Source: Candidatus Poribacteria bacterium (GTDB taxonomy: Bacteria; Poribacteria; WGA-4E; JAJDTR01). From it: a DNA stretch of 64,000 nt. The stretch's first letter is position 1; the number at the start of each line of letters is the position of its first letter. The notes beneath the pieces were generated by a model that saw only the letters and a program-made list of their open reading frames with translations, was not told where the DNA came from and did not search any database. The stretch spans positions 352,001 through 416,000 of the forward strand of contig CBDCTK010000002.1 in NCBI GenBank assembly GCA_965222225.1. Direction: 5' to 3'. Made by a program: the position numbers and the translations under genes. This document shows, piece by piece, positions 21,923 to 40,901 of this stretch.

Positions 21923-21976
21923 ATCAAATGAGCAGATAGCAATCAAGCGAACGGATAGTGAGTGCGATAGAAATCT
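21923..21976 (+). repeat. 35-bp insert element: truncated copy B1 (21923-21941) plus full copy B2 (21942-21976)
   Basis: ATCAAATGAGCAGATAGCA followed by ATCAAGCGAACGGATAGTGAGTGCGATAGAAATCT, inside a CGGGG...CCCCG hairpin. Confidence 0.8.
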
Positions 21977-23784: not shown

Positions 23785-23901
23785 TTTCAAAATTCTCCTT
23801 TTAGCCAAGTAGGCGCGCCTTGCAAACATACCTACTTGACCCTACAGACGTAGCTGATTAGGACATTTTAAGGAAGGATGGAAAAATCCTTGCATGCCTT
23901 C

Positions 23902-24138: not shown

Positions 24139-24318
24139 AAATGGTAGTTCTTGACAATGGGTTCATCTTGCCAGGCTCTCTTAGGGAATATCGGCGATCA
24201 TTCCCTGCATTGTCCAGTCATTTTGCAAAAGGAATTACCCTTAAACTAGCCTAGATTTTCAACTCGTTGGGACAAATATACTCAATCCGGTTGAGTCGTT
24301 AAGGAGGGAAAGTGAAAA

Positions 24319-25757: not shown

Positions 25758-25850
25758 ATCGGGTTAAGGGACTGTCCTGCTGTGAAGTGTAGCAAGCGTC
25801 ATCAAATTGCCTTGCATTTTCTCGCACCTCAATTCAAGTTCTCCACACAA

Positions 25851-26867: not shown

Positions 26868-27143
26868 TGGTCTCTATCTCCTGTGTATTTTAAGGGGTGT
26901 GGGTTGTGGTTGGTTCTCGCAACGAAGCCGGAATCCTTACATTATCGGTTTCTAACGTTGGGATTCGCGTACCCTACTTTAATCGTAGCGAATTCAATTG
27001 CATTTTCGAACGGGATTCTTGTCGAATCCAAGAAAATGGTTGGTTTTCAATCAACAATACGATTTATTGTGGTTCCGCGATTCATCATCTTTGAGCGAAT
27101 TTCGATTGTCAAATGGAAGATGGAGTTCCGAACTGCGTAAATC

Positions 27144-27179
27144 CAAGCAATTCAATACTATCAAGCAATTCAATACTAT
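27144..27179. repeat. Perfect 18-bp tandem duplication next to an IS701-like end (27131-27146)
   Basis: CAAGCAATTCAATACTAT x2; preceded by AACTGCGTAAATCC. Confidence 0.8.
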
Positions 27180-27409
27180 TTCGAAGGAAGTTGCGCCGAC
27201 TCTTTACCATTAAAGAATAACATATCTATCCACTTATTTACAAGAACAGGCAAGAACGTGTCTGAACCTAGACACGCTTCAAAGTCAGAGTATCGGGAGT
27301 ATGAATCCGTTTTCGGGGGTTAAGTCAAGGTAGTCGTAGAGGTCGAGTTATGCCATATCTAAGGGTGTTGTATACAAATCCTTGGAGTCGGCATTGTCTT
27401 TCTTTTAAC

Positions 27410-27438
27410 TTGACTTTTGGGACTGTTTTTGCTAAAAT
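27410..27438 (+). promoter_or_regulatory. Putative sigma70 promoter upstream of gltA
   Basis: TTGACT-17 bp-TAAAAT with an extended TG motif. Confidence 0.5.
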
Positions 27439-27625
27439 AGCAGTGGGGTAGCGCCGAATTTAAAGTACGTTAATGCACTGCTGCGACAGAATCGGAATTT
27501 TTTTATTGAGCCTGCCGGAATGCAGTCCGTCCAAAGGTAGTGCATACCTTCCCTGTTTTCCTCACGAAGTTGACTCGTTACGAGCATTCGGGGCGCCCAA
27601 ATCTAGGACATGCACTTTGTTTGTT

Positions 27626-27840
27626 ATACCATTTCGCTTGAATAATAGTGCGTATAATGTCTTAATTATATCGTTCACTTTCTCCGTCGGCGGGGATCAA
27701 CTGACCCAACAGGCAGGGCGATGGAGATCTCGTCTTGCCCCGCCGACTTTTCGCGGAGACAAGGTTTATTTCTCTGCTACAAGCAAGTTTCTTTACTTAA
27801 TCCACGTAATCAATGCACTTGCATTTTAGTGAAATAGTAT
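27626..27840. mobile_element. MITE copy 2 carrying 35-bp insert copy E (27696-27730)
   Basis: ATACCATTTC...GAAATAGTAT ends; aligns along its length with 52867-53113. Confidence 0.75.
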
Positions 27841-28046
27841 TACCAATGTAAAATTCATGGCAAATGAATTGTTCTGTTGACTTAGAGGCTATTGGGAGGG
27901 AAGGTCGCGAAGAGCAATTCTGCTTAATCTTACTGTGCTTTTTTCGGAGCCATATAAGGCAATTCACCAGATTCACAGAAACCATGTTGAAATGAATGCG
28001 GAACGATTCTCACGTGCCGTGCCGTGTCAGCCATAGGAGGGGTTGC

Positions 28047-29195
28047 ATGCCACATGAATTTGTACCCGGCCTTGAAGGGGTGCCGATTGCTAAATCCGCA
28101 ATCAGTTTTGTTGATGGGCTAAACGGAGTCTTGGAATACCGAGGAATCCGCATACAAAATCTTGCCGAACACAGCACGTATGAGGAAACCGCTCATTTGT
28201 TGCTCAAAGGCGAACTGCCAGACCAAGCGGCGCTTGACGATTTAATCCATGATTTGGCTCACTACCGAAGGCTTGAATCCCAAGTGATTGATTTAATTAA
28301 ATGCCTGCCTGAATACGGACATCCGATGGACGCCTTGCAAGCGGCGATTGCTGCTTTGGGCATGTTTCATTCTGCCAAGGATGTCACCAATAACGCGGAA
28401 AACAACCTTTCTTGCATTCGCTTAATTGCCAAGCTTCCTACCATCGTCAGTACATTCGAGAGGTTCCGAAACGGCGCTGAGATCCTTCCTCCTCATGACG
28501 GCCTTGGACACGCTGCCAATTTCTTATTCATGCTTACGGGTGAGGAGCCTAATCATGTGAGCGTAAGAGCTCTTGACGTGTGTCTAATATTGCATGCCGA
28601 CCATACAATGAATGCTTCAACGTTTAGCGGACGCGTGACAGGTTCGACCTTGGCGGATCCGTACACGGTTGTCAGTTCGGCGGTTGGCACGCTGTCAGGG
28701 CCATTACACGGTGGCGCGAACGAACAGGTGCTTGATATGCTCCGTGAAATCGGATCAGTTCAAAATGCGGAGTCCTACATCGAAAGCAAGATGGCGAACA
28801 AAGAACGAATCATGGGCTTTGGGCACCGTGTGTATAAGACCAAGGACCCGCGGGCGATTATCCTGAGACGCCTGGCAGACGAAATGACTGAGGAGCATGG
28901 TTCAACCGAGTTGTGCGAAATCGCTCTGAGGGTCGACGAAATCGTCACTGAACGGTTGGGTGAGAAGGGAATATATGCAAATGTTGATTTCTACTCGGGT
29001 ATCGTTTACGACGCGCTGGGGATCCGGCCAGACGCTTTTACTCCAATCTTTGCCATGGGGCGAGTCGCAGGATGGCTTGCGCATTGGTTGGAGCAACTAA
29101 TCGATAATCGAATCTTTCGACCGACCCAAATATACGCAGGGGAACACGACGTTCAATATAATCCGGCGGAGCAACGCGGCGGAAAATCAAGCTAG
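28047..29195 (+). CDS. gltA: Citrate synthase
   Basis: PGLEGV, LHADHTMNASTF, GPLHGGAN, MGFGHRVYK, ANVDFYSG; RBS AGGAGG before ATG 28047. Confidence 0.95.
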   Translation: MPHEFVPGLEGVPIAKSAISFVDGLNGVLEYRGIRIQNLAEHSTYEETAHLLLKGELPDQAALDDLIHDLAHYRRLESQVIDLIKCLPEYGHPMDALQAAIAALGMFHSAKDVTNNAENNLSCIRLIAKLPTIVSTFERFRNGAEILPPHDGLGHAANFLFMLTGEEPNHVSVRALDVCLILHADHTMNASTFSGRVTGSTLADPYTVVSSAVGTLSGPLHGGANEQVLDMLREIGSVQNAESYIESKMANKERIMGFGHRVYKTKDPRAIILRRLADEMTEEHGSTELCEIALRVDEIVTERLGEKGIYANVDFYSGIVYDALGIRPDAFTPIFAMGRVAGWLAHWLEQLIDNRIFRPTQIYAGEHDVQYNPAEQRGGKSS

Positions 29196-29209
29196 AATGA
29201 GGAACAACA

Positions 29210-30460
29210 GTGATAGAATTTGATAAACTGCAAGTGCCTACTAAAGGCGAAACTATCGGTAAAGTAAACGGGCAGCTAGAGGTGCCAAGTCAGCCGATTA
29301 TTCCGGTCATTGAAGGCGATGGTATTGGCCGTGATATCATGAAAGCCACGCGCCGAGTGATTGACGCCGCAATTGAATCAGCGTATGGAAGCGAAAAACG
29401 TGTCGTATGGTTTGATGTCTATGCCGGCGAGAAAGCAAATGCCGAATATGGAGAATGGCTGCCGCAGGACACCTTCGATGCTATCAAGCATTTCCGCGTT
29501 GCCCTGAAGGGACCATTGACGACACCAGTGGGCGGCGGATTTCGAAGCTTAAATGTGACGCTGCGCCAAGTATTGGACCTGTATGCCTGTGTTCGCCCGG
29601 TGCGCTATTTTGAAGGCGTGCCAGCTCCCGTAACTCACCCCGAAAACATGAACGTCGTTATTTTCCGTGAGAATACCGAAGATGTTTATGCCGGAATCGA
29701 GTGGGCGAAGGGAACGCCTGAAGCCAAAAAAGTAATCGACTTTCTTCACAGTGATATGGGTGTGAAGGTGCGTAAAGATTCCGGGATTGGCATTAAACCT
29801 ATTAGCGTATTCGGAACAAGTCGTCTTGTGCGGATGGCGATGCAGTACGCTATCGACCACAACCGTTCCAGCGTCACGTTTGTCCATAAAGGCAATATCA
29901 TGAAGTTCACTGAAGGCGCTTTCCGTGATTGGGGTTATCAAGTTGCGGAGGATGAATTTCCGGATTCGACAATTACCGAAGACAATCTCTACGAGGTACA
30001 TGACGGGCGAGTTCCCAATGGCAAAATCGTCGTGAAAGATCGGATTGCCGACAGTATGTTACAGCAAATCTTAACACGGACTGCCGAATACGATGTAATC
30101 GCTACGCCAAACCTGAATGGCGACTACCTCTCCGATGCCTGTGCGGCGCAGGTTGGTGGTATCGGGATGGCGCCCGGCGGGAATTTTGGCGATGAAACAG
30201 CACTGTTTGAAGCAACTCACGGCACCGCTCCGAAGTACACGGATCAGGATGTTGTCAATCCAAGTTCGTTGATTCTTTCCGCCGTAATGATGCTTGAACA
30301 TCTTGGTTGGCAAGAGGCAGCAGACTTGGTTATCCATGGGCTTGAGCAAACAATTCTGCAAAAGCGTGTGACTTATGACCTTGAACGGCTGATGGACGGA
30401 GCGACGAAGGTGCGTACTTCTGAATTTGCCACCGCAATCATTGAAAATTTCACGGCTTGA
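29210..30460 (+). CDS. icd: Isocitrate dehydrogenase (dimeric, E. coli/Bacillus type)
   Basis: [54 protein letters not shown]. Confidence 0.95.
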
Positions 30461-30502
30461 TGAGATCTGATTCTGTTGCACTTTTTCTGAATGGAGGAAG
30501 AC

Positions 30503-31429
30503 GTGGGTAGAAAGAAAATCAGCGTCATTGGCGCGGGAAACGTCGGCGCGACAGCAGCGTTTCTGATTGCCCAAAAGCAACTGGGCGATGTTGTGATGGT
30601 AGACATAATCGACGGTATTCCGCAAGGCAAAGCTCTTGACATGGCACAAACCGCGCCAATTGAAGCTTTTGACGCGAACATCACGGGAGCAGTTGATTTT
30701 GAAGCTACTGCCGGGTCGGATTTAGTGATTATCACTTCGGGCTCTCCTCGAAAACCGGGTATGACCCGCGAGGATCTCTTGCAAACGAACGCCAACATAG
30801 TTAGAAACGTCACAGAAAATGTGGTAACACGCTCACCAGATTGCGTCATCGTAATGTTGACCAACCCGCTCGACATCATGACCTATCATGCGTGGAAGGT
30901 ATCGGGATTTCCTGCTCACCAAGTGGTTGGACAAGCTGGCGTCCTTGACTCGGCGCGATTCCGTTATTTTATTTCACTCGAATTGGGAGTATCCGTTGAG
31001 GACATCCACGCGCTTGTTCTTGGCGGACACGGCGATACCATGGTGCCGCTTCCTCGCTATACGACGGTTAACGGTGTTCCAATCACTCAACTTATTCCTG
31101 CCAACCGGATTGAAGAGATGGCACAACGGACTCGCGATGGCGGCGCTGAAGTCGTTGATTTGCTGAAGACTAGTGGTTATTACGCTGCGGGTGCTTCGCT
31201 CGCCGAAATGGCGGAAGCCATCATCCTTGATAGGAAGCGTCTGCTTCCCTGCTCAGCGTATCTTACTGGACAGTACGGTATTGATGACTTGTATATAGGA
31301 GTCCCAATAAAGCTTGGAGGTGGCGGCGTTGAACAGGTTATCGAAATCGACCTGACCGATGACGAACTTCAGGCATTGCAAACATCTGCCAAAACGTATC
31401 GCGAGGGAATTGCTCTACTAAGCAAGTAA
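30503..31429 (+). CDS. mdh: Malate dehydrogenase (LDH-like)
   Basis: IGAGNVG, PRKPGMTREDL, GVLDSARFR, LGGHGD; RBS GGAGG before GTG 30503. Confidence 0.95.
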   Translation: MGRKKISVIGAGNVGATAAFLIAQKQLGDVVMVDIIDGIPQGKALDMAQTAPIEAFDANITGAVDFEATAGSDLVIITSGSPRKPGMTREDLLQTNANIVRNVTENVVTRSPDCVIVMLTNPLDIMTYHAWKVSGFPAHQVVGQAGVLDSARFRYFISLELGVSVEDIHALVLGGHGDTMVPLPRYTTVNGVPITQLIPANRIEEMAQRTRDGGAEVVDLLKTSGYYAAGASLAEMAEAIILDRKRLLPCSAYLTGQYGIDDLYIGVPIKLGGGGVEQVIEIDLTDDELQALQTSAKTYREGIALLSK

Positions 31430-31534
31430 TTGCTTCGGTTGCAAAAGAACATACCTTGTAGTGTGGAACCGTGTAGGTTATCCGAGTTGGGAGTTCAGGC
31501 AGGAGCGATAAGTTACGGAGGCTGAAGAACAAGA

Positions 31535-32296
31535 ATGACGGAACTCGCCGATATTGAAAATGAATTCATCCGCGAAGAGATTGAAGAGTTTCTCGAACGA
31601 CCCGATGAAATAGAACGAACGATTAAGACATTTGCCAAAACTGCTCCCGAGATGCAGGCTATCGCCGCCGCGCTAATTGACGGAGACAATGATGCGGTGG
31701 ACGAATTGACCAAAGAAGCCTTGGATGCCGGGACTGAAGCACTAGAGATTATGGACGACGGGCTCATCTCTGGCATGGGTATTGTTGGCATCAAGTTCCG
31801 GGAAAACTTCATTTTCGTGCCGGAGGTGCTTGCTTGTGCGCGTGCAATGAAGGCGGGTATGGCATACGTTGAGCCCATACTGTCCGCTTCCGGGGTCGAA
31901 CCCGTTGGAACGGTAATCATGGGGACAGTGAAGGGCGATCTACACGACATTGGGAAGAATCTTTGCATTATGATGCTACGCGGTGCCGGGTTCGTAGTTC
32001 ATGACCTCGGTGTGGATACTTCGGATGATGAATTTATTAAGGCCTTTGAGGAGCACGATGCGAAAGTGTTGGGGATGTCCGCTCTGTTGACGACCACGAT
32101 GCCGAACATGGGTAAGACAATCGAAGCTTTCATTGACGAGGATCTTCGTGATGACGTTAAAATTATGGTCGGTGGAGCGCCCGTGACGCAGGAGTTCGCC
32201 GATGATATGGGCGCCGACGGGTACGGCAAGGATGCACTTGAATGTGTCGCATTGGCAAAGAAGTTTGTCGAAGAAGAAGATGAGGAAGAGTTCTGA
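31535..32296 (+). CDS. Corrinoid (cobalamin-binding) protein of a split methyltransferase system
   Basis: Four-helix cap (FVPEVL) plus GTVKGDLHDIGKNL (DxHxxG), SALLTTT, VGGAP. Confidence 0.95.
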   Translation: MTELADIENEFIREEIEEFLERPDEIERTIKTFAKTAPEMQAIAAALIDGDNDAVDELTKEALDAGTEALEIMDDGLISGMGIVGIKFRENFIFVPEVLACARAMKAGMAYVEPILSASGVEPVGTVIMGTVKGDLHDIGKNLCIMMLRGAGFVVHDLGVDTSDDEFIKAFEEHDAKVLGMSALLTTTMPNMGKTIEAFIDEDLRDDVKIMVGGAPVTQEFADDMGADGYGKDALECVALAKKFVEEEDEEEF

Positions 32297-32314
32297 AATT
32301 TGTGAAAGTGCAGA

Positions 32315-34216
32315 ATGCAGAAAATAGACAAGGAAGAATACCAGAAGCGACTTGACAAAATTACCGAAACGTTTGAGGGCATAGTGCTGCACGCGGATGA
32401 GCAATCCACATATCGATGTCCTTACAAGAATCGTTTCGATCAATGTACGGCAAAATTCGGATGTCGCAATCAACGCAAGCCACCTACCAAAGGGGATTTA
32501 CTTCTATGTGGCGGCGATGACCGCATAGATTACCGAAGTGCCTGGGAAACCGAGGCAGTAGACGGTGCTTATCTAGAGGACATTGAGTACGGCATGGGTA
32601 CAATTGAACATGCTGGAAAAGCCCGGAAATTATCTGCCGGGAAAACCATCTTCGATTATGCTGATGAGCTTGCTGTCCAAGTGCCGACCTCCTGTTTTCG
32701 CACCGGACAATGCCATGAGTGTATCGTCGAAGTGAAGTCGGGCATGGAAGCGTTACGCCCTCGAAATGAAGTAGAATCATTTCTACGAGACAACCACCGT
32801 CTCGCTTGTCAGGCGGTGGTTCTAGATCCCGACATTGATATAGAATTCTCCCCATTGCGGCGCACGCCTAAAATTCTCACCCTGACAGATGAAAAGCCGA
32901 TAGCATCTGATCCGTTAGTCACCCGCCGAGGGGACAGCGTTTATTATAACGGCGAGTACATCGACAGATATCGGGGTCACCTCTACGGTTTGGCAATCGA
33001 TCTTGGCACGACCACCATTGTCATTGATTTAGTGGACTTGGAAGGCGGAAAAACCGTTCACGTCAGTTCGTTTGAGAACCCGCAAAGGTTTGGCGGAAGT
33101 GATGTGATGCATAGAATATCATACGACGCTGAATTCGGAGGCGAGTTACGTAAAGCGGTCATCAACGCGCTGAATCACGAAATCTTGGAGATGGGCAAGA
33201 GCCTTGGTTTTGTTCGTCAAGAAATCTATGAGATTGTCTTGGTGGGCAATTCGACCATGCGCGACATCTTTTTCAATCTTGATGTGCAGAGCATCGGTCA
33301 AAAACCTTACAAGTCCACAATAGAACACGAATATCTGGAAGGCAAGCGCGAGACCACCGCGCTCCTAGAGAAAACGCGACGGCTGGGAATTCGGGCGAAT
33401 CCAAAAGCCGTTGTTTACGGTTTGCCTCTGATTGCAAGCCACGTTGGCGCAGATGTTGCCGCCGACCTAGTGGCAATTGAGATCGCCTCGCAAGACGAAG
33501 TTGTGATGCTGGTGGATGTTGGTACCAACACCGAAGTGGTTGTGGGGCACGCAGGCCGGTTGGTGGCAGCTTCCTGTCCGGCAGGTCCCGCTTTTGAAGG
33601 GGGCGGAATCGAATACGGCATGCCCGGGTACGATGGTGCCATTGAGTCAATTCATTTGAACAACGGTCAGACCGAATACCGAACTATTGGTGATGTCGAA
33701 CCCCAGGGCATCTGCGGATCCGGTTTAATCGATCTGCTGGCGGAACTTCGAAACCATGATTTGATGACGCCAATGGGAGTTTTCTCAGAAAAGAAACAGC
33801 GCAAGATAGCAGTTATTCCCGAATATGGAATCACTCTGTCACGTGATGATGCCAGCAATCTTGCCCAAGCGAAAGCCGCGAATTATTGCGGTCAATTCAT
33901 CGTAATGCGAAAATTTGGTGTTAACCCGGCGGATGTGAAGAAGCTATATTTAGCTGGTGGATTCGCCAACTATGTGGATGTGCGCAATGCAATTGACATC
34001 GGGTTCTTGGCACCGGTTCCCGACGATCGAATTGTCAAGGTTGGCAACGCAGCGGTACAAGGGGCAAGGGAGATATTGCTGTCGCGCAAGAAGCGTGAAT
34101 CAATCGAGGATTTGGTCAAGAAGATTGAGCACGTCGAATTGGAGACGACGCCGGATTTCTTCGAAGTATTCGTGGAAGGCTGCCAATTCAAACCGATGCC
34201 AACGAAGTTCGCCTAA
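32315..34216 (+). CDS. ASKHA-type ATP-dependent reductive activator of corrinoid enzymes (RACE/RamA-like, DUF4445) with 2Fe-2S domain and extra N-terminal Cys domain
   Basis: SCFRTGQCHEC...RLACQ ferredoxin; AIDLGTTT, NPQRFGGSDVMHRI, DVGTNTE, SCPAGPAFEG, GICGSG, LAGGFANY. Confidence 0.9.
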   Translation: MQKIDKEEYQKRLDKITETFEGIVLHADEQSTYRCPYKNRFDQCTAKFGCRNQRKPPTKGDLLLCGGDDRIDYRSAWETEAVDGAYLEDIEYGMGTIEHAGKARKLSAGKTIFDYADELAVQVPTSCFRTGQCHECIVEVKSGMEALRPRNEVESFLRDNHRLACQAVVLDPDIDIEFSPLRRTPKILTLTDEKPIASDPLVTRRGDSVYYNGEYIDRYRGHLYGLAIDLGTTTIVIDLVDLEGGKTVHVSSFENPQRFGGSDVMHRISYDAEFGGELRKAVINALNHEILEMGKSLGFVRQEIYEIVLVGNSTMRDIFFNLDVQSIGQKPYKSTIEHEYLEGKRETTALLEKTRRLGIRANPKAVVYGLPLIASHVGADVAADLVAIEIASQDEVVMLVDVGTNTEVVVGHAGRLVAASCPAGPAFEGGGIEYGMPGYDGAIESIHLNNGQTEYRTIGDVEPQGICGSGLIDLLAELRNHDLMTPMGVFSEKKQRKIAVIPEYGITLSRDDASNLAQAKAANYCGQFIVMRKFGVNPADVKKLYLAGGFANYVDVRNAIDIGFLAPVPDDRIVKVGNAAVQGAREILLSRKKRESIEDLVKKIEHVELETTPDFFEVFVEGCQFKPMPTKFA

Positions 34217-34223
34217 GTGACGT

Positions 34224-35840
34224 GTGAGGGTACAGCTTATGAATACCGCCCACGCTCAGTCTAGTCAGCAGGTCGGTGCTTGGCAAAAGCGTCCACTGCG
34301 TCATCTACTTGAGGAAACGGATACGTTTGTCACTTGCGTTGAGCTGGTGACTTCGCGCGGCGTAATCACCGAACGTAATGGCAGACGCGTACTGGAATTG
34401 GCTAGAAAGCTCACCGAGCACCCGCGCATACATGTCCTAAGTATTACCGACAACCCTGGCGGTAATGCCATGCTCAGCGCTGACACGCTCGGAACGGATC
34501 TCATCTCTCGAGGTCAGGAAGTTGTTATCCACCTTTCATGCAAAGACTGGAACCGCAATGCCCTCCAGAGCCGTGGGTGGCAGCTCGCGAGCGAGGGCTT
34601 CAACAATGTACTCGCTTTGTCGGGCGACTATCCCAACGATGGCTATCAAGGGCAGGCAAGCCCCGTTTTTGACACCGATTCGGTTGGTCTGCTCAAAATG
34701 TTCTCGGATATGAACGCCGGAATGACCGTTGCGGCAGGGGGAAAAAACGAGGTATTAAAACGCACCGACTTCTATCTAGGCGCCGTAGTAAACAACCACA
34801 AACGTTTTGAACGCGAGGTGATGCCGCAGTATTTCAAGCTTGCCAAGAAGGTGAAAAACGGAGCGGCGTTTATCATCAATCAGATTGGCTACGACTCGCG
34901 TAAGCAGGACGAATTATTGAAATATATGTCAATGCACGGTATCAACGTGCCGGTGCTTGGCAACGTCTATGTGCTGAGCCGCGCCGCGGCGCGATACTTC
35001 AATGCGGGGAAAATTCCGGGTGTCACGGTAACCGACGATCTGCTGCGACTGGTTGAAAAGCAAGCGAAATCGCGCGATAAGGGCAAAGCCTTCTTCTTGG
35101 ATTTTGCCGCGAAACAGTGTGCTATTGCGAAGGGATTGGGCTACCGCGGCGTCTACTTGGGCGGACATCTGCAATATAAGGATTATGAGAAAGTTCTGCA
35201 GATGACCGATGAGTTCGGCGCCGATGACTGGAAGGAGTTCGTGGAGGAAATCTGTTTCGGTCACTCCGGCGAATTCTACTTCTTTGAACCGGAACCAAAA
35301 ACAGGTCTCAGTTCAACCGCGGTCAACCGGAGTTACCTTTTTTCAAAACGTCCCGAAGCCTTGCAGGCGGCAAGGCGCGATATCTCGTTCGGATACAAGC
35401 TAAACAGGGGTGTGCACGGAGCAGCATTTGAAGGTGAAACACTTGGGTTCAAAGCCGGGCGGAAGATTTTCCGGGCGGTTGACAAAGCCGGCGTTCGCGT
35501 ACAGACAGCCGTGCATGCAGCCGAACATGCCATTAAAGCAGTAATGTTTGACTGCCGTGATTGCGGCGACTGTTCATTGCCGGAAATTGCCTTTCTCTGT
35601 CCCGAATCTCAATGCGTAAAAAACCAGCGTAACGGCCCCTGTGGCGGCACACGTCAGGGAAAATGTGAAATCGGTGAAAAAGATTGCATTTGGGGAAGAG
35701 CCTACGACCGACTAAAGGCATACGGGGAAGAGGAGAGCATGATGGAAGAACCGGTGGTCTTCAAGAACGGCGCGTTGAAGGGTACAAGCGCGTGGGCAAA
35801 CACGTTTCTAGGACGAGATCATCACGCACGCAAGAAATGA
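34224..35840 (+). CDS. metF: Methylenetetrahydrofolate reductase (MetF) fused to a C-terminal Cys-rich MetV-like domain
   Basis: SITDNPGG, HLSCKDWNRNALQS, LALSGD, KKVKNGAAFIINQ; C-terminal CRDCGDC...CPESQCVKNQRNGPCGG...CE...CIW. Confidence 0.85.
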   Translation: MRVQLMNTAHAQSSQQVGAWQKRPLRHLLEETDTFVTCVELVTSRGVITERNGRRVLELARKLTEHPRIHVLSITDNPGGNAMLSADTLGTDLISRGQEVVIHLSCKDWNRNALQSRGWQLASEGFNNVLALSGDYPNDGYQGQASPVFDTDSVGLLKMFSDMNAGMTVAAGGKNEVLKRTDFYLGAVVNNHKRFEREVMPQYFKLAKKVKNGAAFIINQIGYDSRKQDELLKYMSMHGINVPVLGNVYVLSRAAARYFNAGKIPGVTVTDDLLRLVEKQAKSRDKGKAFFLDFAAKQCAIAKGLGYRGVYLGGHLQYKDYEKVLQMTDEFGADDWKEFVEEICFGHSGEFYFFEPEPKTGLSSTAVNRSYLFSKRPEALQAARRDISFGYKLNRGVHGAAFEGETLGFKAGRKIFRAVDKAGVRVQTAVHAAEHAIKAVMFDCRDCGDCSLPEIAFLCPESQCVKNQRNGPCGGTRQGKCEIGEKDCIWGRAYDRLKAYGEEESMMEEPVVFKNGALKGTSAWANTFLGRDHHARKK

Positions 35841-35975
35841 TATGGCGGTCCATTGCGTGTTCATACGAGATTGTCTCAACCAAGTCCAAAGTTAGATGCC
35901 TATTGTAGTTATCTATAGTCATTGCAATTAAGAATTTTACACACTCGGACTTAGGTTGTTCGATTTGTAGTAGCA

Positions 35976-36010
35976 ATCAAGGGAGCGAATAGCGACTGCG
36001 ATAGAAATCC
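35976..36010 (+). repeat. 35-bp structured insert element, copy C
   Basis: ATCAAGGGAGCGAATAGCGACTGCGATAGAAATCC after TGTAGTAGCA. Confidence 0.85.
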
Positions 36011-36026
36011 CTTTATTGCGCGTCTT

Positions 36027-36116
36027 CTGTAGAGGATCAAACGACCGAATAGGGAGTGCGATAGAGATTTTCTCGCGATCGCGACTTCCTGACGTGAGCA
36101 AAGCTCGCTCCTACAG
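36027..36116. repeat. GTAG-type REP doublet carrying 35-bp insert copy D (36036-36070)
   Basis: CTGTAG...CTCCTACAG; insert ATCAAACGACCGAATAGGGAGTGCGATAGAGATTT; the homologue at 8457-8514 lacks the insert. Confidence 0.8.
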
Positions 36117-36249
36117 TTGAATTATCGTAACAGTCTACAATCATCAAATCGCCCATCTCCATGCTTTCAATTCGCGTCTGACTGGTTTTTCACTCGCTTG
36201 TAGACTGAAATGTGTGTAAATTTATGAATCTAAATGACTATAATCTGTT

Positions 36250-37284
36250 ATGAAGCTAAACGGTAAAGAATTTATCAGCATTGGTGAAAACGTCCATACT
36301 ACGCGCGTGGTAATGCGAAAGGGCAAGCTGGTTACCAGCAATCCTGACGGGGTTGAATCCGTTTGCTATCTTGACGCTGGAAAAAAGAGACGCTGTTTAA
36401 CTATTCCCGAAGATGTAAAAAAAACTCAGGATTACGAAGAGGGTCGGGTCAAACACGTTAAAATTGCAGTTCAAGCGGCAATGACCGGCGAGGGTGCCGA
36501 TGCCTCTGAAGGACTGAACTACATACACCGACTGGTTCAGCGCCAAGTTGACGCCGGTGCCAGTTTCATCGATTTGAATGTGGATGAAATCTCGCTGCGT
36601 CCTCAGGAACAGAAAGAGGCAATGCAGTGGCTGGTACGAACAGTGCAAAAGATGTGTCCTGTACCGCTGTCGGTGGATTCATCGAACGTCGAGACTATTC
36701 AAGCGGGCCTGGAAGCCGGCGATTGGAGAGCCGGTCGAATGTTGCTGAACTCGGCGTCACTGGAACGACTTGAGGCACTCGATCTTGCGAAACAGTATGA
36801 CTCGCAGGTCATCGTGACGGCAGCGGGGGAGTCTGGCATGCCGCAGGATGATGCAGAACGAATCGCCAATGCTTCTCGGATGGTGGACACTGCCCTAGAT
36901 AGAGGCATTTCGATTGAGGATATATTCATTGATGTACTCATATTTCCTATCTCGGTTGACGGCGCGTTCGGCGCCCATGCCTTTGACACAATTCGTCAAC
37001 TACGCGCCAAGTATGGGCCCGACATCCACATCACCGGGGGCTTTAGTAATGTGTCCTTCGGCTTGCCTTGTCGCCGCATTGTCAATGACGTTTTTATGTG
37101 CTTGGCGATTGTAGCCGGTGCGGACAGCGGAATCATCGATCCGGTCACAAGCCGACCCTCCAAGGTATTCACCATTGATAGGGGGTTGCGGCCGTATCAA
37201 CTCACCGAAGATATGCTGCTTGGACGAGATCGATTCTGCAAGGAATTCTTGAGGGCTTATCGCAAAGGGGAATTGGAAGTCTAA
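36250..37284 (+). CDS. Methyltetrahydrofolate:corrinoid methyltransferase (pterin-binding, DHPS fold, AcsE/MeTr-like)
   Basis: IGEN, GASFIDLNVD, LSVDS, LLNS, GFSNVSFG and IIDP motifs. Confidence 0.9.
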   Translation: MKLNGKEFISIGENVHTTRVVMRKGKLVTSNPDGVESVCYLDAGKKRRCLTIPEDVKKTQDYEEGRVKHVKIAVQAAMTGEGADASEGLNYIHRLVQRQVDAGASFIDLNVDEISLRPQEQKEAMQWLVRTVQKMCPVPLSVDSSNVETIQAGLEAGDWRAGRMLLNSASLERLEALDLAKQYDSQVIVTAAGESGMPQDDAERIANASRMVDTALDRGISIEDIFIDVLIFPISVDGAFGAHAFDTIRQLRAKYGPDIHITGGFSNVSFGLPCRRIVNDVFMCLAIVAGADSGIIDPVTSRPSKVFTIDRGLRPYQLTEDMLLGRDRFCKEFLRAYRKGELEV

Positions 37285-37290
37285 CTAAGG

Positions 37291-37590
37291 ATGGCAACGT
37301 ATCAGATTCTGTACTGGAAGCATATTCCGGCTCAAATCAGAGTCTTTGAGGGGAAAAAACCGATTTCGCAGCCGATGCCTGATCGATTTCAGACCGACAT
37401 CGATCGAACTGCTATGAAGGAAGGCTTGACGGGGACTGACGAATATCTTGATCAGTGGCAGTGGACGGAAAAACGCGAGCGCCCGGGTGATGCCCGTGAC
37501 GTTTTGCCAGAGCTCGTGAGAGAACTCGAATCTGAATACGACATCAATGTCCCCATCAATGTCCCAAAGACAGGTAACCGTCAACAGTAA
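37291..37590 (+). CDS. Small 'virulence factor' family protein found with split MetH/MetF clusters
   Basis: YQILYWKHIPAQI...MPDRFQTDIDRTAM..G....DEYLDQW pattern. Confidence 0.8.
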   Translation: MATYQILYWKHIPAQIRVFEGKKPISQPMPDRFQTDIDRTAMKEGLTGTDEYLDQWQWTEKRERPGDARDVLPELVRELESEYDINVPINVPKTGNRQQ

Positions 37591-37719
37591 AGGGGAGATG
37601 CGAGCAAATCACAGACAAATCGCATCCGCTCAAAATCTGCGCTTTAACTAGCAATCCAAGAGTTGTCATAAAGGTTGAAGACATTCAAGAATTGATACAA
37701 ATCAGGGAATCTGCCGATT

Positions 37720-38787
37720 ATGGATACAACGATTCAATCCATTCTGGAGAAAGCATTAGCCGGTGAGCGCTTAGACTTCGACGATGGTCTAACCCTCTTC
37801 AAGAGTACCGACCTCCTCTCCATTGGAAGCGCGGCTGACGTTATTCGTCAACGCAAGCACCCGGAAGGCGTAATCACCTATGTTGTTGATCGCAACATCA
37901 ACTACACAAACTGGTGCTATGTGGATTGCGATTTCTGCGCCTTCTATCGGCATAAGAGTGACCCTGATGCTTATGTCATGGGACGAGAGGAACTAGGCCA
38001 GAAGATTCAAGAAACCATTGACTTAGGAGGGGTACTTATCCTCATGCAAGGTGGTCTGCATCCCAAACTCAAACTCGATTGGTACGAAGACCTCCTTCTC
38101 TGGATCAAAAAGAACTATGAGATCCATATCCATGGGTTCTCGCCCCCGGAACTTGACTGGTTTGCAAAAATCAACCGAATCAGTCTTAAGGAAACATTGA
38201 CGCGACTACGGGATGCGGGGCTGGATTCAATACCTGGCGGAGGCGCAGAAATTCTTACCGATCACGCTCGGAATGAAATCAGTCCCAAGAAATGCACCGC
38301 GGATGAATGGCTGGAAGTCATGCGGCAGGGGCATTACGTGGGCTTAAAATCGAGCGCAACGATGATGTATGGACACGTCGAAAGTTACGGCGAGCGTGTT
38401 GAACATCTTCTTCGTCTCCGCGAGTTGCAAGACGAGACTGGTGGGTTCACTGCGTTCATCTGCTGGTCGCTGCAACCCAACAACACGCGCATGGACCACA
38501 TCCCCCCGGCTGGAAGTTTCGAGTATCTAAAAACCTTGGCGATATCCAGGATCATGCTTGACAATTTTGACAACTTTCAATCTTCATGGGTGACTCAAGG
38601 TCCCAAAATTGGTCAGTTGTCGCTTAAGTTTGGCGCGAACGACATGGGAGGAACGATGATCGAGGAGAATGTCGTGAGTAAGGCGGGAACTGTCTACTGC
38701 ATGTCGATTGAGGAGATTGAACAGACGATTACCGAGTTGGGGTTGGTTCCGAAGCGGCGGAATTTCTTTTATGAATTGGTTGATTGA
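37720..38787 (+). CDS. mqnC: Cyclic dehypoxanthine futalosine synthase (radical SAM)
   Basis: VDRNINYTNWCYVDCDFCAFYR, LMQGGLHP, SIPGGGAEIL, QSSWVTQG, GANDMG..MIEENVV. Confidence 0.9.
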   Translation: MDTTIQSILEKALAGERLDFDDGLTLFKSTDLLSIGSAADVIRQRKHPEGVITYVVDRNINYTNWCYVDCDFCAFYRHKSDPDAYVMGREELGQKIQETIDLGGVLILMQGGLHPKLKLDWYEDLLLWIKKNYEIHIHGFSPPELDWFAKINRISLKETLTRLRDAGLDSIPGGGAEILTDHARNEISPKKCTADEWLEVMRQGHYVGLKSSATMMYGHVESYGERVEHLLRLRELQDETGGFTAFICWSLQPNNTRMDHIPPAGSFEYLKTLAISRIMLDNFDNFQSSWVTQGPKIGQLSLKFGANDMGGTMIEENVVSKAGTVYCMSIEEIEQTITELGLVPKRRNFFYELVD

Positions 38788-38851
38788 AGTGAACGGGTAA
38801 GACAAAAGCCACTTTGGCAACTTTAAACCATAGACCTTATTTGGAGGACAT

Positions 38852-39748
38852 ATGACGCAGAGTGTGATTACCAAAACAGATCTGGCCAATCTACCGCTAT
38901 TCAACATAGGTAAGGTGCGTGATCTCTACGATCTTGATGATAAACTCTTGATGATTTCAACAGATCGGATTTCGGCATTCGATTACGTCCTCCCGGACGG
39001 CATCCCGTGTAAGGGCGACGTTTTGACCGCATTGTCAGAGTTCTGGTTCAATCACACAAAGTCAATCGTGGACAATCACCTAATTACTACGGATGTCGCA
39101 GCGTATCCTGACGAATTGAAACCACATGCCGAAGTGATCAGAGGAAGGTCAATGCTGGTGCACAAAGCCGATCGAATCGACATCGAATGTGTGGTGCGCG
39201 GTTACATCGCTGGGTCGGCATGGTTGGAATACAAGGCAGATGGAACGGTTTGTGGCGAGAAATTACCTGAAGGCTTGCGTGAATCCGATCGTTTGCCTCA
39301 GCTTATCTTTACGCCTGCCACGAAGGCAGAGCAGGGGGAGCATGACGAGAATATCTCGATTGCGCGGATGGAGGAAATAATTGGAAAAGATTTATCGGAG
39401 CGAATCATTGAGGCAAGTTTCGCACTTTTTAAATCCGCAAGTCAACACGCGGAAAAGGTTGGGATAATCCTTTGCGATACGAAGTTTGAGTTTGGACTGC
39501 TTGATGACAATTTGATTCTCATTGACGAGGTGTTTACACCTGACTCTTCCCGATTCTGGCCGAAGGACGAATATGAGCCGGGCAAATCTCAAAGTAGCTT
39601 TGACAAACAGTACGTGCGAGATTATTTATCTGAAGTCGGCTGGAACAAAGAACCGCCCGCGCCTCATTTGCCCAAGGACGTAATCCACAGAACAAGCGAG
39701 AAGTATCTGGAAGCATACCGATTGATTGTTGGGCGAGAATTGACTTAG
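38852..39748 (+). CDS. purC: SAICAR synthetase
   Basis: GKVRDLY, TDRISAFD, ECVVRGYIAGS, DTKFEFG, TPDSSRFW, FDKQYVRD. Confidence 0.97.
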   Translation: MTQSVITKTDLANLPLFNIGKVRDLYDLDDKLLMISTDRISAFDYVLPDGIPCKGDVLTALSEFWFNHTKSIVDNHLITTDVAAYPDELKPHAEVIRGRSMLVHKADRIDIECVVRGYIAGSAWLEYKADGTVCGEKLPEGLRESDRLPQLIFTPATKAEQGEHDENISIARMEEIIGKDLSERIIEASFALFKSASQHAEKVGIILCDTKFEFGLLDDNLILIDEVFTPDSSRFWPKDEYEPGKSQSSFDKQYVRDYLSEVGWNKEPPAPHLPKDVIHRTSEKYLEAYRLIVGRELT

Positions 39749-39816
39749 GTGGAGAAGAAGAAAGTAGAACGGCAGGGCTGTGAGAAATCTAAACTGTGTG
39801 ATTGACGAATCCAGAC

Positions 39817-40281
39817 TTACTCTACAAGAAACAGATGGCTACGTTCAAACAAGTCGTCTACGGAAATGTCAACAATCCATTCACCTTTCGGGAATCCGTT
39901 AGAAGGGCGTTCTATATAGAACCACGTAATCTGTTCGCCGGTCGCAGAGGAGAACGTCTCACGTTCTTCTCGGAACGGGGGATCGTCCAAGGTTCCGTCT
40001 GGAGAGAACCAACGAACATCAACTGAATGACGTCCTTCGACATTGGTCCAATAAATCCATAAGAAAATCCTATCACTCGTGTCGGAAAAGAAGACATCCG
40101 TGATGCCATCAGGACGGTCGTCACTTACCGAAATTGCCAAAGCTGAGTCTAAAATTGCAGGCTCACCTCTGAAAACACCGCTAGATCCGCTCCCACCGGA
40201 ACCTGTTTCATCACACCCACTGAAAAGCATGACGCCCCACAGCAGGGCTAAACCGATCGTCCAAACAACAGCCTTATTCAT
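39817..40281 (-). CDS. Lipoprotein with a single Ig-like beta-sandwich domain
   Basis: RBS GAGGAG, lipobox FSGC, Gly/Ser linker, W.SPDG...GEW.VDI pattern. Confidence 0.65.
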   Translation of the reverse strand: MNKAVVWTIGLALLWGVMLFSGCDETGSGGSGSSGVFRGEPAILDSALAISVSDDRPDGITDVFFSDTSDRIFLWIYWTNVEGRHSVDVRWFSPDGTLDDPPFREERETFSSATGEQITWFYIERPSNGFPKGEWIVDISVDDLFERSHLFLVE

Positions 40282-40319
40282 TGTGTTTCTCCTCAAATGT
40301 CTAGCGTAGTACGATACTA

Positions 40320-40348
40320 ATCATACCTAACCCGATAGCGTCTGTCAA
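40320..40348 (-). promoter_or_regulatory. Putative sigma70 promoter
   Basis: TTGACA-17 bp-TATGAT on the minus strand, upstream of 40281. Confidence 0.55.
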
Positions 40349-40391
40349 CCGAAAAAACAGTAACAAACTACGTCTAGATTGTTGCAGAACG

Positions 40392-40901
40392 ATGGAATGG
40401 GAGCAAAGGTTCTTTTTCCCCGCCAATTGGTTATGGTGTCAACACAAGAAAGGAACACTGAATTTGGGTGCTGCCGCGACTCTGCATAGATGTGCAGGCG
40501 GAATTGTCATACGTCGGAGTAGTGATTTCGTTGAATTTCTACTGCTAAAACAGATAAGAAAAACCGGCGAAGTCCAATGGGTCATGCCTAAAGGACATAT
40601 TCAAAAAGGCGAAACTTCCGAGAGAACAGCGATCCGCGAGGCGAGGGAAGAAGCGGGGCTTGAAGAACTTCGGCTTATTGCTTGCCTTGGTAAACAGGAG
40701 TTTCGGTACCGTGAGGAGCACGAAATTCAACACAAGAAAGTGGTGAGTTGGTATCTGATGGAAACACCCTATGAATCCCATCTTTCTATCAAGGCTGAAG
40801 AAGGATTTATCAAAGCGATGTGGCTTCCGTATGAGGAGACACGGAAACAATGTTCACACAAGGACTTTCGAGAGTGGGTAGATAAGGCGGCAAAGCCCTA
40901 G
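40392..40901 (+). CDS. NUDIX hydrolase (Ap4A-hydrolase-like); true start may be downstream
   Basis: WVMPKGHIQKGETSERTAIREAREEAGL Nudix box. Confidence 0.85.
   Translation: MEWEQRFFFPANWLWCQHKKGTLNLGAAATLHRCAGGIVIRRSSDFVEFLLLKQIRKTGEVQWVMPKGHIQKGETSERTAIREAREEAGLEELRLIACLGKQEFRYREEHEIQHKKVVSWYLMETPYESHLSIKAEEGFIKAMWLPYEETRKQCSHKDFREWVDKAAKP

Follow-up and report, generated by a model that had tools for sequence, protein, structure and literature searches.

Copies of the repeat in the window

The window analysed here, a stretch of 64,000 nucleotides from the genome of a Candidatus Poribacteria sponge symbiont, contains copies of a short dispersed repeat, which are listed in Table 1 together with their host repeats. 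A preliminary description of this DNA had placed seven full copies in it, and we located all seven at those coordinates by means of a pattern search, the 3' motif and a covariance model. It had furthermore claimed two truncated copies at 21923 and 52946; both are present, the first as a 5' part (21923-21941) and the second as a copy without tip (52946-52970). The pattern search, allowing up to 3 mismatches, recovered five of the seven full copies, the 3' motif found seven, and the covariance model, which was built from the same seven, also found seven. Dinucleotide shuffles of the window gave no pattern match.

Table 1. Copies of the repeat and associated features in the window. Bits are scores of the covariance model; the two copies marked as flagged are those singled out in the preliminary description.
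Feature	Position	Strand	Bits	Context
Full copy (G0 to Y36), most diverged	8530-8566	-	48.5	5 nt after GTAGTAGAG; 11:17 is C-C
'Empty' host REP GTAGGCGGGGCATCTTGCCCCGC	21452-21474	+		Same hairpin as the host at 27695 and 52946-53006, here copy-free
Full copy	21731-21767	+	57.0	Within tip of double-foot GTAG REP (GTAGGGGCGCGG 21720-21731 ... CCCCTAC ending 21803)
Truncated 5' part, ATCAA..GA..G.ATAGCA	21923-21941	+		Next full copy directly adjoins
Full copy behind truncated one	21941-21977	+	55.2	Between GGGCGGGG and CCCCGTGC
MITE-like insert, 216 bp	27626-27841			Houses hairpin of the 27695 copy; missing in four congeners
Diverged full copy	27695-27731	+	47.6	Loop of hairpin GTCGGCGGGG...CTTGCCCCGCCGAC
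Full copy, flagged	35975-36011	+	55.7	5 nt after GTAGTAGCA
Full copy, flagged	36035-36071	+	55.4	3 nt past GTAG of double-foot REP (GTAGAGG 36029 ... CGCTCCTAC ending 36114)
Copy with hairpin tip deleted	52946-52970	+		ATCAAGCGAGC-GCGATAGAAATCCC
Full copy, tandem behind tip-deleted one	52970-53006	+	51.2	Starts CTCAA

Paralogous empty sites of the hairpin around the 27695 copy read GGCGGGG-CA-TCTTGCC, and the copy-free REP at 21452 agrees with the empty forms found for such sites. The 35975 copy lies within a stretch of about 330 bp (35918-36245), which six congeners lack at the same intergenic site. Around the second flagged copy, a joint present in four public runs swaps 36033-36076 for 12 other letters, corresponding to a REP form that lacks the copy. 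The tandem pair at 52946-53006 is bracketed by GTAGGCGGGG and CCTTGCCCCGCCGAC and belongs to a class of 11 copies genome-wide. The layout at 21923-21941 is that of a genome-wide class, too, in which copies are nested after R17 (40 copies). A DDE insertion sequence at 20445-21242 has no relation to the element.

Repeat family and conserved unit

In the 5.7-Mb genome the family comprises 897 copies (at most 5 substitutions), with none in the reversed genome used as control. These numbers support the earlier view of a very small dispersed, structured and mobile-looking element. The unit comprises about 36 nt with the consensus G-ATCAA-NN-GA-NY-GRATA-RN-GA-NN-GCGATAG, followed by a variable tail. 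Its 5' limit is sharp, whereas tails of different length and sequence occur at the 3' end; in the 4.7-4.9-Mb chromosomes, TCTT replaces ATCY. The consensus proposed earlier holds in outline with some amendments. The loop, given as GAATA, reads GRATA genome-wide, and position 11, taken for a fixed C, is a Y that pairs with R17. G0, which is a G in 801 of the 897 copies, and Y36 have to be added, both lying within the conserved unit. A covariance model of the seven window copies gave 126 matches in 85.6 kb, consisting of loci of other Poribacteria genomes and the window.

A comparison with Rfam, as had been proposed, matched no family: the whole window yielded no match at the gathering score, and around the flagged pair a scan at E<=10 returned a single match of 10 bits to a family with a threshold of 158 bits, which we read as chance. 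No description of this repeat sequence was found in the literature searched, and the viral contigs searched gave no match to the element. The earlier statement that it belongs to no known family thus holds for the sequence but not for the kind of element, since small palindromic repeats of the REP type are already described in the sections of PMC3733652 considered here.

Fold and covariation

All 21 pairings listed in the preliminary description for positions 6:22, 7:21 and 10:18 of the seven window copies had been read correctly. A fourth covarying pair is 11:17 (Y-R), with C-G in 469, T-A in 271 and T-G in 120 of the 897 copies. Over the four pairs, 3398 of 3588 cells are paired (94.7%), compared to a shuffled mean of 2140 (59.6%) and a maximum of 2206, and 737 of the 897 copies form all four. 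The same pairs exhibit the highest mutual information of all column pairs (1.11, 0.94, 0.74 and 0.39 bits; next 0.33). Among 120 distinct copies 96.5% of the cells pair (79.0% shuffled), double-change cells number 151 (29 shuffled), and the covariation score is 0.554 (0.204 shuffled), a value reached in none of 500 shuffles; slid controls gave at most 0.11. Furthermore, distinct cores at distance 2 form 1808 pairs, 265 of which differ at the two partners of one base pair, where 2.9% would be expected. From 7 to 897 copies the covariation grows stronger; it does not disappear, which would have spoken against the preliminary description.

G.T and T.G cells number 418 in the 897 copies and A.C and C.A cells 66, indicating that only the written strand (ATCAA...GCGATAG) folds; the earlier claim that the fold is selected on a single strand is borne out by these counts. 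The written strand is also calculated to be more stable than its complement, in 78% of the copies with DNA and in 92% with RNA parameters. Single copies are uninformative for the fold, because their folding z-scores lie near 0 (-1.2 to +1.3). The outer pairing of GG(G)AT with the terminal ATCY, which had been suggested as well, lacks covariation support. Guide-target pairing was not apparent either: the mutual information between flank and stem columns was never above 0.15 bits.

The fold can be modelled as a rod made up of two Watson-Crick helices, each of 2 bp and free in sequence, which stack between conserved G.A pairs. These would be A5.G23, G8.A20, A9.G19 and G12.A16; a tip of 3 nt would cap the rod, and the 3' heptamer GCGATAG would come next. 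The purines are invariant, and a strict rule governs the pair types allowed beside each G.A pair. Recognition would read the shape and the conserved purines, not the letters of the stem.

The thermodynamic calculations do not favour the DNA form. Calculated with DNA nearest-neighbour parameters, just 52 of 897 copies have the covarying fold as their predicted minimum-energy structure, and the energy is equal to that of shuffles. With RNA parameters this applies to 699 of 897 cores, with a mean of -4.25 kcal/mol compared to -2.53 kcal/mol for shuffles, which would fit a fold acting as RNA. The element might be a SINE-like retro-element or a processed RNA hairpin; sense transcripts of some copies would fold, be recognised by a reverse transcriptase or an RNA-guided enzyme and return to DNA in either orientation. 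G.U pairs and tandem G.A pairs, too, are typical of RNA. Target-primed copying would fit the sharp 5' end, the variable 3' tail and the target loss of 1-2 nt. Contigs from RNA libraries cover the intergenic region, continuing from the gene upstream into the first of the flagged copies, although as contigs they display neither ends nor strand and may stem from DNA carry-over. Against an RNA form speak the orientation of the copies, which is unbiased with respect to neighbouring genes (see below), the absence of a promoter-like conserved flank and the lack of an Rfam family. Moreover, there is one weak RVT_1 match in this genome, and RVT_1 is absent at E<=0.001 from 3 of 9 congeners with more than 400 copies. 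We consider it rather improbable that the element acts as RNA.

The preliminary description had also offered a catalytic motif. An invariant purine-rich core with covarying helices, for which a protein partner was not found, would be compatible with a self-processing ribozyme or deoxyribozyme. Nothing points to catalysis, however: neither an Rfam ribozyme nor any other family matched, the predicted simple rod has no internal loop or junction that could provide a pocket, and evidence for cleavage is absent. Self-processing appears extremely improbable.

Genomic location and replication strand

The copies are mainly intergenic (749 of 897) in a genome that is 82% coding according to a crude ORF map. 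Their orientation shows no relation to transcription, with 267 copies in the same and 232 in the opposite direction between co-directional genes. It follows replication, as 449 copies lie on the C-rich and 191 on the G-rich strand according to the coding-only skew (about 70% on the C-rich strand); counted by cluster, the values are 218 and 99 (p = 2e-11). This check of transcription versus replication had been proposed earlier, and its outcome favours ssDNA over a locally acting RNA. We infer that the folded form is DNA rather than RNA.

GTAG REPs are biased alike, e.g. GTAGGGTGCG with 106 compared to 37. The element is co-oriented with GTAG, which occurs within 30 nt upstream of 313 of the 897 copies, CTAC occurring there in 53. 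The upstream GTAG stands at varied spacings and belongs to the host REPs, not to the unit. The folding strand is mostly the C-rich one, i.e. the leading-strand template. This is contrary to the IS608-type model, in which the active strand lies on the lagging-strand template according to the part of PMC6006769 considered.

Insertion sites and nesting

Copies lie at the hairpin junctions of GTAG REPs and other copies, directly after a G. A comparison of occupied with empty paralogous sites places the unit at GGTGCG/CACTG, GGCGGGG/CATC, GCCCCAGCGGGG/CGACAGG and GTAGGAGCG/ATCTCC (the slash marks the position of the copy). The left junction lies after G with a preference for S-G. The right junction is imprecise, with a net gain of 33-38 nt (34, 35 and 36 about equally common), and the host sequence often picks up 1-2 nt late. 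At least 188 copies are nested in others, 114 after G23, 40 after R17 and 34 after G12. Neighbours less than 70 nt apart are direct in 129 and inverted in 22 cases in this genome; a few tail-to-tail pairs were found in the 4.7-4.9-Mb chromosomes.

Many copies are carried along in larger composite repeats, and the 897 copies therefore do not equal 897 events. For instance, one stem combination occurs in 63 copies, of which those inspected lie in the same REP context. Gains at orthologous sites concern composite blocks of 216-330 bp. The element might thus have no dedicated mobility and be a module of mosaic REP clusters, spread passively by template switching, slippage or gene conversion, with its stems kept paired by intra-hairpin repair. 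The shared letters at the left junction (S-G) and the small losses at the right are what microhomology-mediated switching would give, and the two helices vary almost independently (mutual information 0.14, 232 combinations), suggesting recombination. Yet in the 130 copies with unique sequence on both flanks the unit is complete and its conservation sharply delimited (preceding G in 113 of 130), and nested copies are whole units of 34-37 nt at three defined sites. Intra-hairpin repair should also erase the conserved G.A mismatches, and the excess of G.T over A.C requires selection on one strand. We regard purely passive spread as quite improbable.

Turnover and distribution

Five window sites were compared with 9 congeners, the flanking genes of which are 85-88% identical, and in none of these was any of the sites occupied. 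Evidence for mobility comes from comparisons between species and between paralogous sites, and no insertion or excision was seen at strain level. Metagenome loci of the neighbouring gene had at most 73% protein identity and provided no useful strain-level empty sites. In four public runs on 20500-40400 the contigs were broken at repeats and gave no clean presence/absence polymorphism; their joints are paralogous REP forms.

High copy numbers are restricted to 2 of 31 Poribacteria genera (176 genomes of the phylum). Exact-pattern matches number 372-891 in all ten genomes of genus g1 and 134-154 in all four of genus g4. Sporadic matches in other genera are located on contigs with 84-96% identity to this genome, which we take for mis-binning and not spread. 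In a scan of a genome collection all matches listed (at least 80 loci) belong to Candidatus Poribacteria. The REP family GTAGGAGCGATCTC was rejected as a co-travelling partner, being present in 32 of 41 related genomes and far outside the range of the element.

A strand-specific fold at high copy number, with an orientation linked to replication and not to transcription, could also be expected of an ssDNA site which the host keeps for a binding protein or nuclease in the manner of Neisseria NTS/Ssn. Such a site might serve replication, recombination or DNA uptake, its spread being a by-product. The invariant purines and the strict pair-type rule resemble protein read-out, and a precedent exists in the NTS repeats, hairpins of about 30 nt present in hundreds of copies, at which Ssn cuts a single DNA strand (PMC11893778, in the part considered). 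The positions are not conserved between congeners, though, which argues against a function at each site. Copies stack inside one another and inside other repeats in the fashion of selfish DNA, high copy numbers were not found in 29 of the 31 genera, and there is no copy in the vicinity of the genome's small GIY-YIG gene (see below). A site kept by the host therefore seems improbable to us.

Candidate enzymes

A cognate enzyme was not identified among Y1/RAYT, GIY-YIG, reverse transcriptase and tyrosine recombinase genes. Copies are present on both sides of 80 of the 4391 crude genes, and 28 of these have inverted copies. The genome contains five Y1_Tnp loci, two of which are flanked by inverted copies; by motifs, none of the five looks like a class 1.1 TnpA. 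The intact Y1 gene P0001 belongs to subclass 1.2 by its motifs, and in congeners a copy lies no more than about 170 nt away from each of its six close orthologues. Homologues of P0001 occur in element-free genera as well (g6, 7 of 7; g3, 5 of 10), with another inverted repeat on their flanks; here, the element simply lies within that repeat. Thus, the flanking of Y1 genes may be secondary, because REPs are the preferred targets. The class-2 RAYT, which is truncated here, was rejected as a partner: full-length homologues in other congeners are not flanked by the element. None of the Y1 clades tested co-occurs with the element.

An Ssn-like GIY-YIG enzyme was rejected, too, as the only small protein (L234) among 7 PF01541 matches has no copy within 2.5 kb. 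The weak RVT_1 match resides in a 670-aa protein beside a type I restriction subunit, an arrangement of the defence-island type, and was not retained as a candidate. Of the genes with copies on either side, just one other than Y1 encodes an enzyme of interest, a multi-copy tyrosine recombinase. Most genomes of g1 and g4 contain its close clade; so does one element-free g6 genome, and one g1 genome with 515 copies of the element lacks it. The gene is not generally flanked here and its orthologues elsewhere almost never are, so that it was rejected.

Comparison with known systems

The element has much in common with the REP/REPIN-RAYT systems of Proteobacteria and Cyanobacteria. In the parts of PMC6006769, PMC3733652 and PMC3116915 considered here, these are imperfect palindromes of 20-40 nt, mostly intergenic and present in hundreds of copies. 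Their sub-families have alternative complementary stem residues and tolerate G.A mismatches, they cluster as mosaics with a patchy taxonomic spread, and the genomes contain Y1 genes, some with flanking copies. REP families combining such stems and mismatches with tag-less forms are described in the same part of PMC3733652. The excerpted PMC6006769 mentions atypical REPs without GTAG and with weak structure next to some Y1 subclasses, and gives no known DNA partner for subclass 1.2. In contrast to REPs, the element itself carries neither a GT[AG]G nor a CGTC tag at the hairpin foot, the conserved motif GCGATAG follows the hairpin on its 3' side, the helices would comprise just 2 bp between G.A pairs, and the element inserts into other REPs and into itself. 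Unlike REPINs, which are inverted doublets, its close neighbours are mostly direct.

SDR4-6 of Nostoc punctiforme, which Elhai et al. reportedly described in 2008, are said to be mobile-looking repeats of 21-27 nt whose hairpins are kept by compensatory changes. They are reportedly often embedded in other repeats and have no known enzyme. Compared to these SDRs, the element belongs to another phylum, probably differs in sequence, is longer and has the G.A-pair design and the 3' heptamer. It also has a replication-strand bias, which is not known to have been reported for SDRs.

In integron attC sites structure is conserved over sequence, and the folded single strand is used, in chromosomal arrays preferentially on the leading-strand template. 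They comprise 57-141 nt with RYYYAAC/GTTRRRY boxes and extrahelical bases and bound gene cassettes next to intI. The element shares the conservation of structure over sequence and the preference for the leading-strand template, but its consensus contains no GTTRRRY, and its copies are nested in repeats and bound no cassettes.

IS200/IS605 elements such as IS608 and ISDra2, and the gene-less elements derived from them, have sub-terminal hairpins, which resemble the element in being imperfect hairpins recognised on one DNA strand, with insertion 3' of a short specific sequence, no target duplication and replication-coupled mobility. The joins of IS608 are said to be precise. IS200/IS605 elements have two different ends, precise joins and an active strand on the lagging-strand template (PMC6006769, in the part considered), whereas the element has a single hairpin, is fuzzy at its right junction and prefers the opposite strand. 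NTS repeats share with it the hairpin of about 30 nt, oriented non-palindromic flanks and hundreds of copies, according to the portion of PMC11893778 considered. In the same portion, NTS stems form a perfect palindrome (ATTCCC...GGGAAT), and the motif, which is bound and cut as ssDNA on one strand only, usually lies on the flanks of the ssn gene; here, in contrast, the sole small GIY-YIG gene is unflanked.

Proposed mechanism and significance

The best reading of these data is that the element is a gene-less mobile DNA of about 36 nt and a very small relative of REP elements. We assign a probability of about 0.55 to a REP-like, tag-less and non-autonomous ssDNA hairpin element. The written strand would fold as ssDNA into the rod, and a protein acting on single-stranded hairpin DNA, most likely a Y1 HUH enzyme (RAYT/IS200-like), would copy or move the unit. 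It would be inserted where stem and loop of extruded hairpins meet, on the immediate 3' side of a G; such hairpins would be the GTAG REPs of the genome and earlier copies of the element. Copies with unpaired stems would stop spreading, and this loss together with many active source copies would lead to the compensatory pattern. We infer that an HUH enzyme is involved and that the element is selfish.

Alternatively it might be that the element represents a new class of mobile 'nano-element', which would be defined by the shape of its G.A-zipper hairpin and not by its sequence, specifically invade stem/loop junctions of other single-stranded hairpins (REPs as well as its own copies) and live as a hyper-parasite of REP systems. 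Its enzyme would stand outside the known RAYT/IS200 clades, because none of those tested co-occurs with the element. We think this unlikely; if true, the element would be among the smallest mobile DNA units known.

If the unit of the REP-like element truly moves as 34-37 nt, it lies near the lower size limit of mobile DNA. The sole comparable case known to us are the cyanobacterial small dispersed repeats, the mechanism of which is not known to have been clarified since 2008. Insertion at REP hairpin junctions suggests one repeat system parasitising another. With at least 14 genomes that each contain hundreds of copies, the family provides a clean data set, which separates recognised parts (the four G.A pairs, the tip and the GCGATAG heptamer) from parts that merely pair (four base pairs under the strict type rule). 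The element also offers a testable substrate for Y1 enzymes of an uncultured phylum, including subclass 1.2. Furthermore, it can be used as a marker of two Poribacteria genera, flagging mis-binned contigs in metagenome bins. The reverse complement of its 5' end, TTGAT, is identical to the ISDra2 target, which we take for a coincidence.

The repeat unit and its fold

All seven full copies of the dispersed hairpin repeat reported in the preliminary description, including the pair at 35976-36010 and 36036-36070, are present exactly where it had placed them, and the shuffled window contained no match to the consensus. The genome of the window, G000 (5.70 Mb in two contigs, the window being contig 2, 352001-416000), carries 897 copies with up to 5 substitutions, the reversed genome none. 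From the column statistics of the 897 copies, the unit now reads G0-ATCAA-NN-GA-NY-GRATA-RN-GA-NN-GCGATAG plus a tail, mostly ARATCC-Y (positions counted from G0 to Y36); beyond positions -2 to +36 conservation equals background. The tail is variable in register (GCGATAG, 2-3 nt, ATCC) and reads TCTT in chromosomes of 4.7-4.9 Mb, which, judged by their sizes, would belong to a second host genus. The constant part therefore comprises positions 0-29, and 529 distinct 29-nt cores were found.

The covariation seen in seven copies, which should vanish with more copies if the hairpin were spurious, clearly persists in the 897 copies and in 120 distinct rows, as pair counts, mutual information, model-matched rows and two-site differences between cores all indicate. 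Standard pairs are formed in 847 (6:22), 838 (7:21), 852 (10:18) and 861 (11:17) of the 897 copies, all four being intact in 737. Altogether 3398 of the 3588 cells of these pairs are paired, compared to a mean of 2140 (maximum 2206) with shuffled 3' partners. When every pair of columns between -12 and +47 was compared, mutual information was highest for these four, and no link between flank and stem was found. The seven window copies were also turned into a covariance model, which matched 126 times in a set of 85.6 kb that combined the window with 80 short loci of other Poribacteria genomes. In the 120 distinct matched rows, 96.5% of the cells pair (79.0% in shuffles), 151 cells are changed on both sides (29 in shuffles) and the covariation score is 0.554 (0.204 in shuffles, as high in 0 of 500; at most 0.11 in slid-partner controls), with the caveats that the loci were fetched by a pattern fixing Y11 and R17 and that the alignment was fitted to the model. 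Among 1808 core pairs differing at two sites, 265 differ in both partners of one base pair, 5 times the expected 2.9%, and the four commonest classes of such differences are the four base pairs. The two helices vary almost independently (232 stem combinations).

It is the written strand, i.e. the one reading ATCAA...GCGATAG, that folds. G.T or T.G occupies 418 cells of the four pairs vs 66 for A.C or C.A, and the G.A pairs (conserved G8-A9/G19-A20, A5/G23 and G12/A16) are possible on this strand only. An A-T pair whose A lies 5' of the G is never used as the Watson-Crick neighbour of a G.A pair; the forbidden letters 7A, 21T, 10T, 18A, 6T and 22A occur in 4, 9, 8, 8, 11 and 5 of the 897 copies, respectively. 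This rule also holds for the covariance-model rows from other genomes.

Insertion into host hairpins

All seven window copies lie inside REP hairpins, 3-11 nt 3' of GTAG or GTCG. When the left flanks of all G000 copies were classified, 206 had GTAG within 16 nt, 114, 40 and 34 were nested in another copy after G23, R17 and G12, respectively, 11 stood directly behind another copy and 492 had other flanks. Comparison of filled with paralogous empty sites (118 good pairs) revealed that insertion always occurs after a G, at stem/loop or hairpin-end junctions (^ marks the insertion point): GGTGCG^CACTG-CGCACC, GGCGGGG^CATCTTG-CCCCGCC, GCCCCAGCGGGG^CGACAGGT and GTAGGAGCG^ATCTCC. The net gain was 33, 34, 35, 36, 37 and 38 nt in 6, 40, 31, 35, 3 and 3 of these cases. 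No target duplication was detected at these sites; the host sequence often restarts 1-2 letters late, CG becoming C. The 130 copies with unique sequence on both sides retain G0 in 113, S-1 in 105 and Y36 in 122 cases. Larger repeats carry many copies as passengers, amplified together. One block of G000 (Table) holds more than 20 copies in dense, alternating orientation with regular spacings and is apparently a tandemly amplified composite.

Coordinates of the features discussed (window positions unless prefixed)
Feature	Position	Strand	Remark
Gene upstream of the copy pair	34224-35840		
Repeat-module stretch	35918-36245		~330 bp
Gene downstream of the copy pair	36250-37284		
MITE-like insert	27626-27841		216 bp
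Insertion sequence	~20500-21407		~907 bp
DDE_Tnp_1-type transposase	20445-21242	minus	265 aa
Composite block	G000:C2:2706000-2709700		~3.7 kb
P0001 gene (Y1_Tnp)	G000:C2:3080255-3080728 (locus L001 1384-1857)	minus	homologues in loci L012-L018
YVDD protein gene	G000:C2:4499560-4501572 (L278 2061-4073)	minus	670 aa
Tyrosine recombinase copies	G000:C2:460255-461199, 1313887-1314795, 3335622-3336530, 3989323-3990231, 4161171-4162079		303 aa
Element-bearing contigs in other-genus bins	G066:C72, C83, C116; G146:C61, C362; G010:C38, C42, C43		

Turnover and range

None of the five copies in window 20500-38500 is present in the orthologous regions of nine congeners, whose genes there are 85-88% identical; these regions carry copies elsewhere. 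The pair at 35976 and 36036 lies in a repeat-module stretch between two co-directional genes, and six congeners lack this stretch, the same genes being only ~70 nt apart. RNA-library contigs extend from the upstream gene into the stretch. The copy at 27696 is part of a MITE-like insert that is missing from the orthologous site of four congeners. This insert contains a GTCG/GTAG-GGCGGGG hairpin; the congener G005 has many copies of it, and G000 at least one besides this. An insertion sequence in the same region has at least nine further G000 copies (97-100% identity) and dozens near 89% in two congeners.

In a survey of 176 Poribacteria genomes, a 22-nt core pattern matched 372-891 times in 10 of 10 genomes of the window's genus and 134-154 times in 4 of 4 genomes of one genus from another family. 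Three further genomes had 13, 5 and 2 matches, four had single ones and the remaining 155 none. In the three genomes with 13, 5 and 2 matches, the contigs concerned show 84-96% DNA identity to G000 and, judged by this identity, are probably mis-binned; the element could be used as a marker of contig contamination in bins. When each prokaryote species was represented by one genome, a scan detected at least 126 stretches, and among the matches listed 80 of 80 belong to Candidatus Poribacteria. Viral contigs gave no match.

Orientation to genes and replication

On a crude ORF map of G000 (82% coding), 749 copies are intergenic, 38 lie across an ORF end and 110 within ORFs. Most of the ORFs that hold copies are short (median 120 aa vs 291), and only 16 copies lie in ORFs of at least 300 aa. 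The preliminary description had proposed to compare strand bias relative to transcription and replication. Copies between co-directional genes have the written strand as sense in 267 and as antisense in 232 cases, their orientation thus being indifferent to transcription. In relation to local skew (coding sequence only, 30 kb on each side, 254 weak-skew copies left out) it lies on the C-rich strand in 449 and on the G-rich strand in 191 cases. This applies to clusters (218 vs 99, p = 2e-11), singletons (124 vs 69) and unique-flank copies (57 vs 31). Because genes of G000 favour the G-rich strand (1903 vs 1299), it is taken as the leading strand in sequence, and the bias follows replication. 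The GTAG repeats of G000 have this bias in common with the element, which is co-oriented with them. Equally, the bias could arise if stable hairpins on the lagging-strand template are preferentially lost, an effect known from quasi-palindromes in E. coli. In 200-kb bins, the GC skew of contig 2 flips sign many times and the gene-strand majority does not always go with it, e.g. at 1.2-1.6 Mb, suggesting many rearrangements or assembly joins.

Candidate partner enzymes

G000 has five Y1_Tnp loci. Two of them are flanked by inverted element copies, compared to 28 of 4391 crude genes; this exceeds chance, but may only reflect that REPs around RAYT genes are the favourite targets of the element. 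P0001, an intact Y1 protein of 157 aa (motifs DHIH, WQ and YIKNQEAHH), belongs to subclass 1.2 by the motifs in Table 1 of PMC6006769, where REP is listed as 'no' for this subclass. In three genera, however, inverted AAGCCCCAGCGGGGCGACAKGT hairpin repeats bracket a Y1 gene of this subclass (YIKNQEAHH), an arrangement resembling a REPtron. An antisense element copy follows the stop of the P0001 gene at a distance of 10 nt and two sense copies precede the gene; each of its six closest orthologues has a copy within ~170 nt. P0001 is nevertheless probably not the partner, because homologues with 70-77% identity in an element-free genus are flanked by another repeat, inverted AAGCCCCAGCGGGGCGACATGT; the copy in G000 simply lies inside this inverted repeat. 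The truncated class-2 RAYT of G000 also has inverted element copies on both sides; as they do not flank its full-length relatives, it was rejected. Two of the remaining three Y1 loci adjoin GTAG REPs of their own.

A small GIY-YIG gene, reverse transcriptases and a five-copy tyrosine recombinase showed no consistent link to the element. The recombinase copies share 86-100% protein identity; the one at 460255 contains an in-frame element adding ~11 residues, and two of three copies inspected have paralogues of one neighbour gene beside them. A protein with a weak reverse-transcriptase match and a YVDD motif looks like a defence-type enzyme; its gene adjoins a type I restriction R-subunit-like gene, and similar ORFs occur in five congeners.

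Nature of the element and known relatives

The strand-specific fold, the indifference to transcription and the replication-strand bias in common with GTAG REPs fit a REP-like, gene-less element working as folded single-stranded DNA, as do duplication-free insertion at hairpin junctions, nesting, fast turnover, patchy range and the presence of several HUH genes. In contrast to textbook IS608, it prefers the leading-strand template, its right junction is loose and no co-distributed enzyme was found among the candidates checked. The covarying fold was recovered in 699 of 897 copies with RNA parameters and in 52 with DNA parameters, which to our knowledge have no terms for stacked G.A pairs. The choice between both forms is not settled by the energy models; a SINE-like route via an RNA intermediate therefore keeps some weight, although we consider it unlikely.

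In line with the preliminary description, which recognised no known family, there was no match in Rfam, and full-text literature on Poribacteria plus repeats yielded nothing relevant. The closest small analogue is presumably the SDRs of Nostoc. PMC3733652 describes REP families that have G.A mismatches and alternative, mutually complementary residues in the stem, as well as tag-less REP-like families, and section 12 of PMC6006769 reports atypical, weakly structured repeats accompanying some Y1 subclasses. The element is REP-like but set apart from REPs by the lack of a tag and of doublets and by its G.A-stacked 2-bp helices; other hairpin repeats are its hosts, on which it is apparently parasitic.
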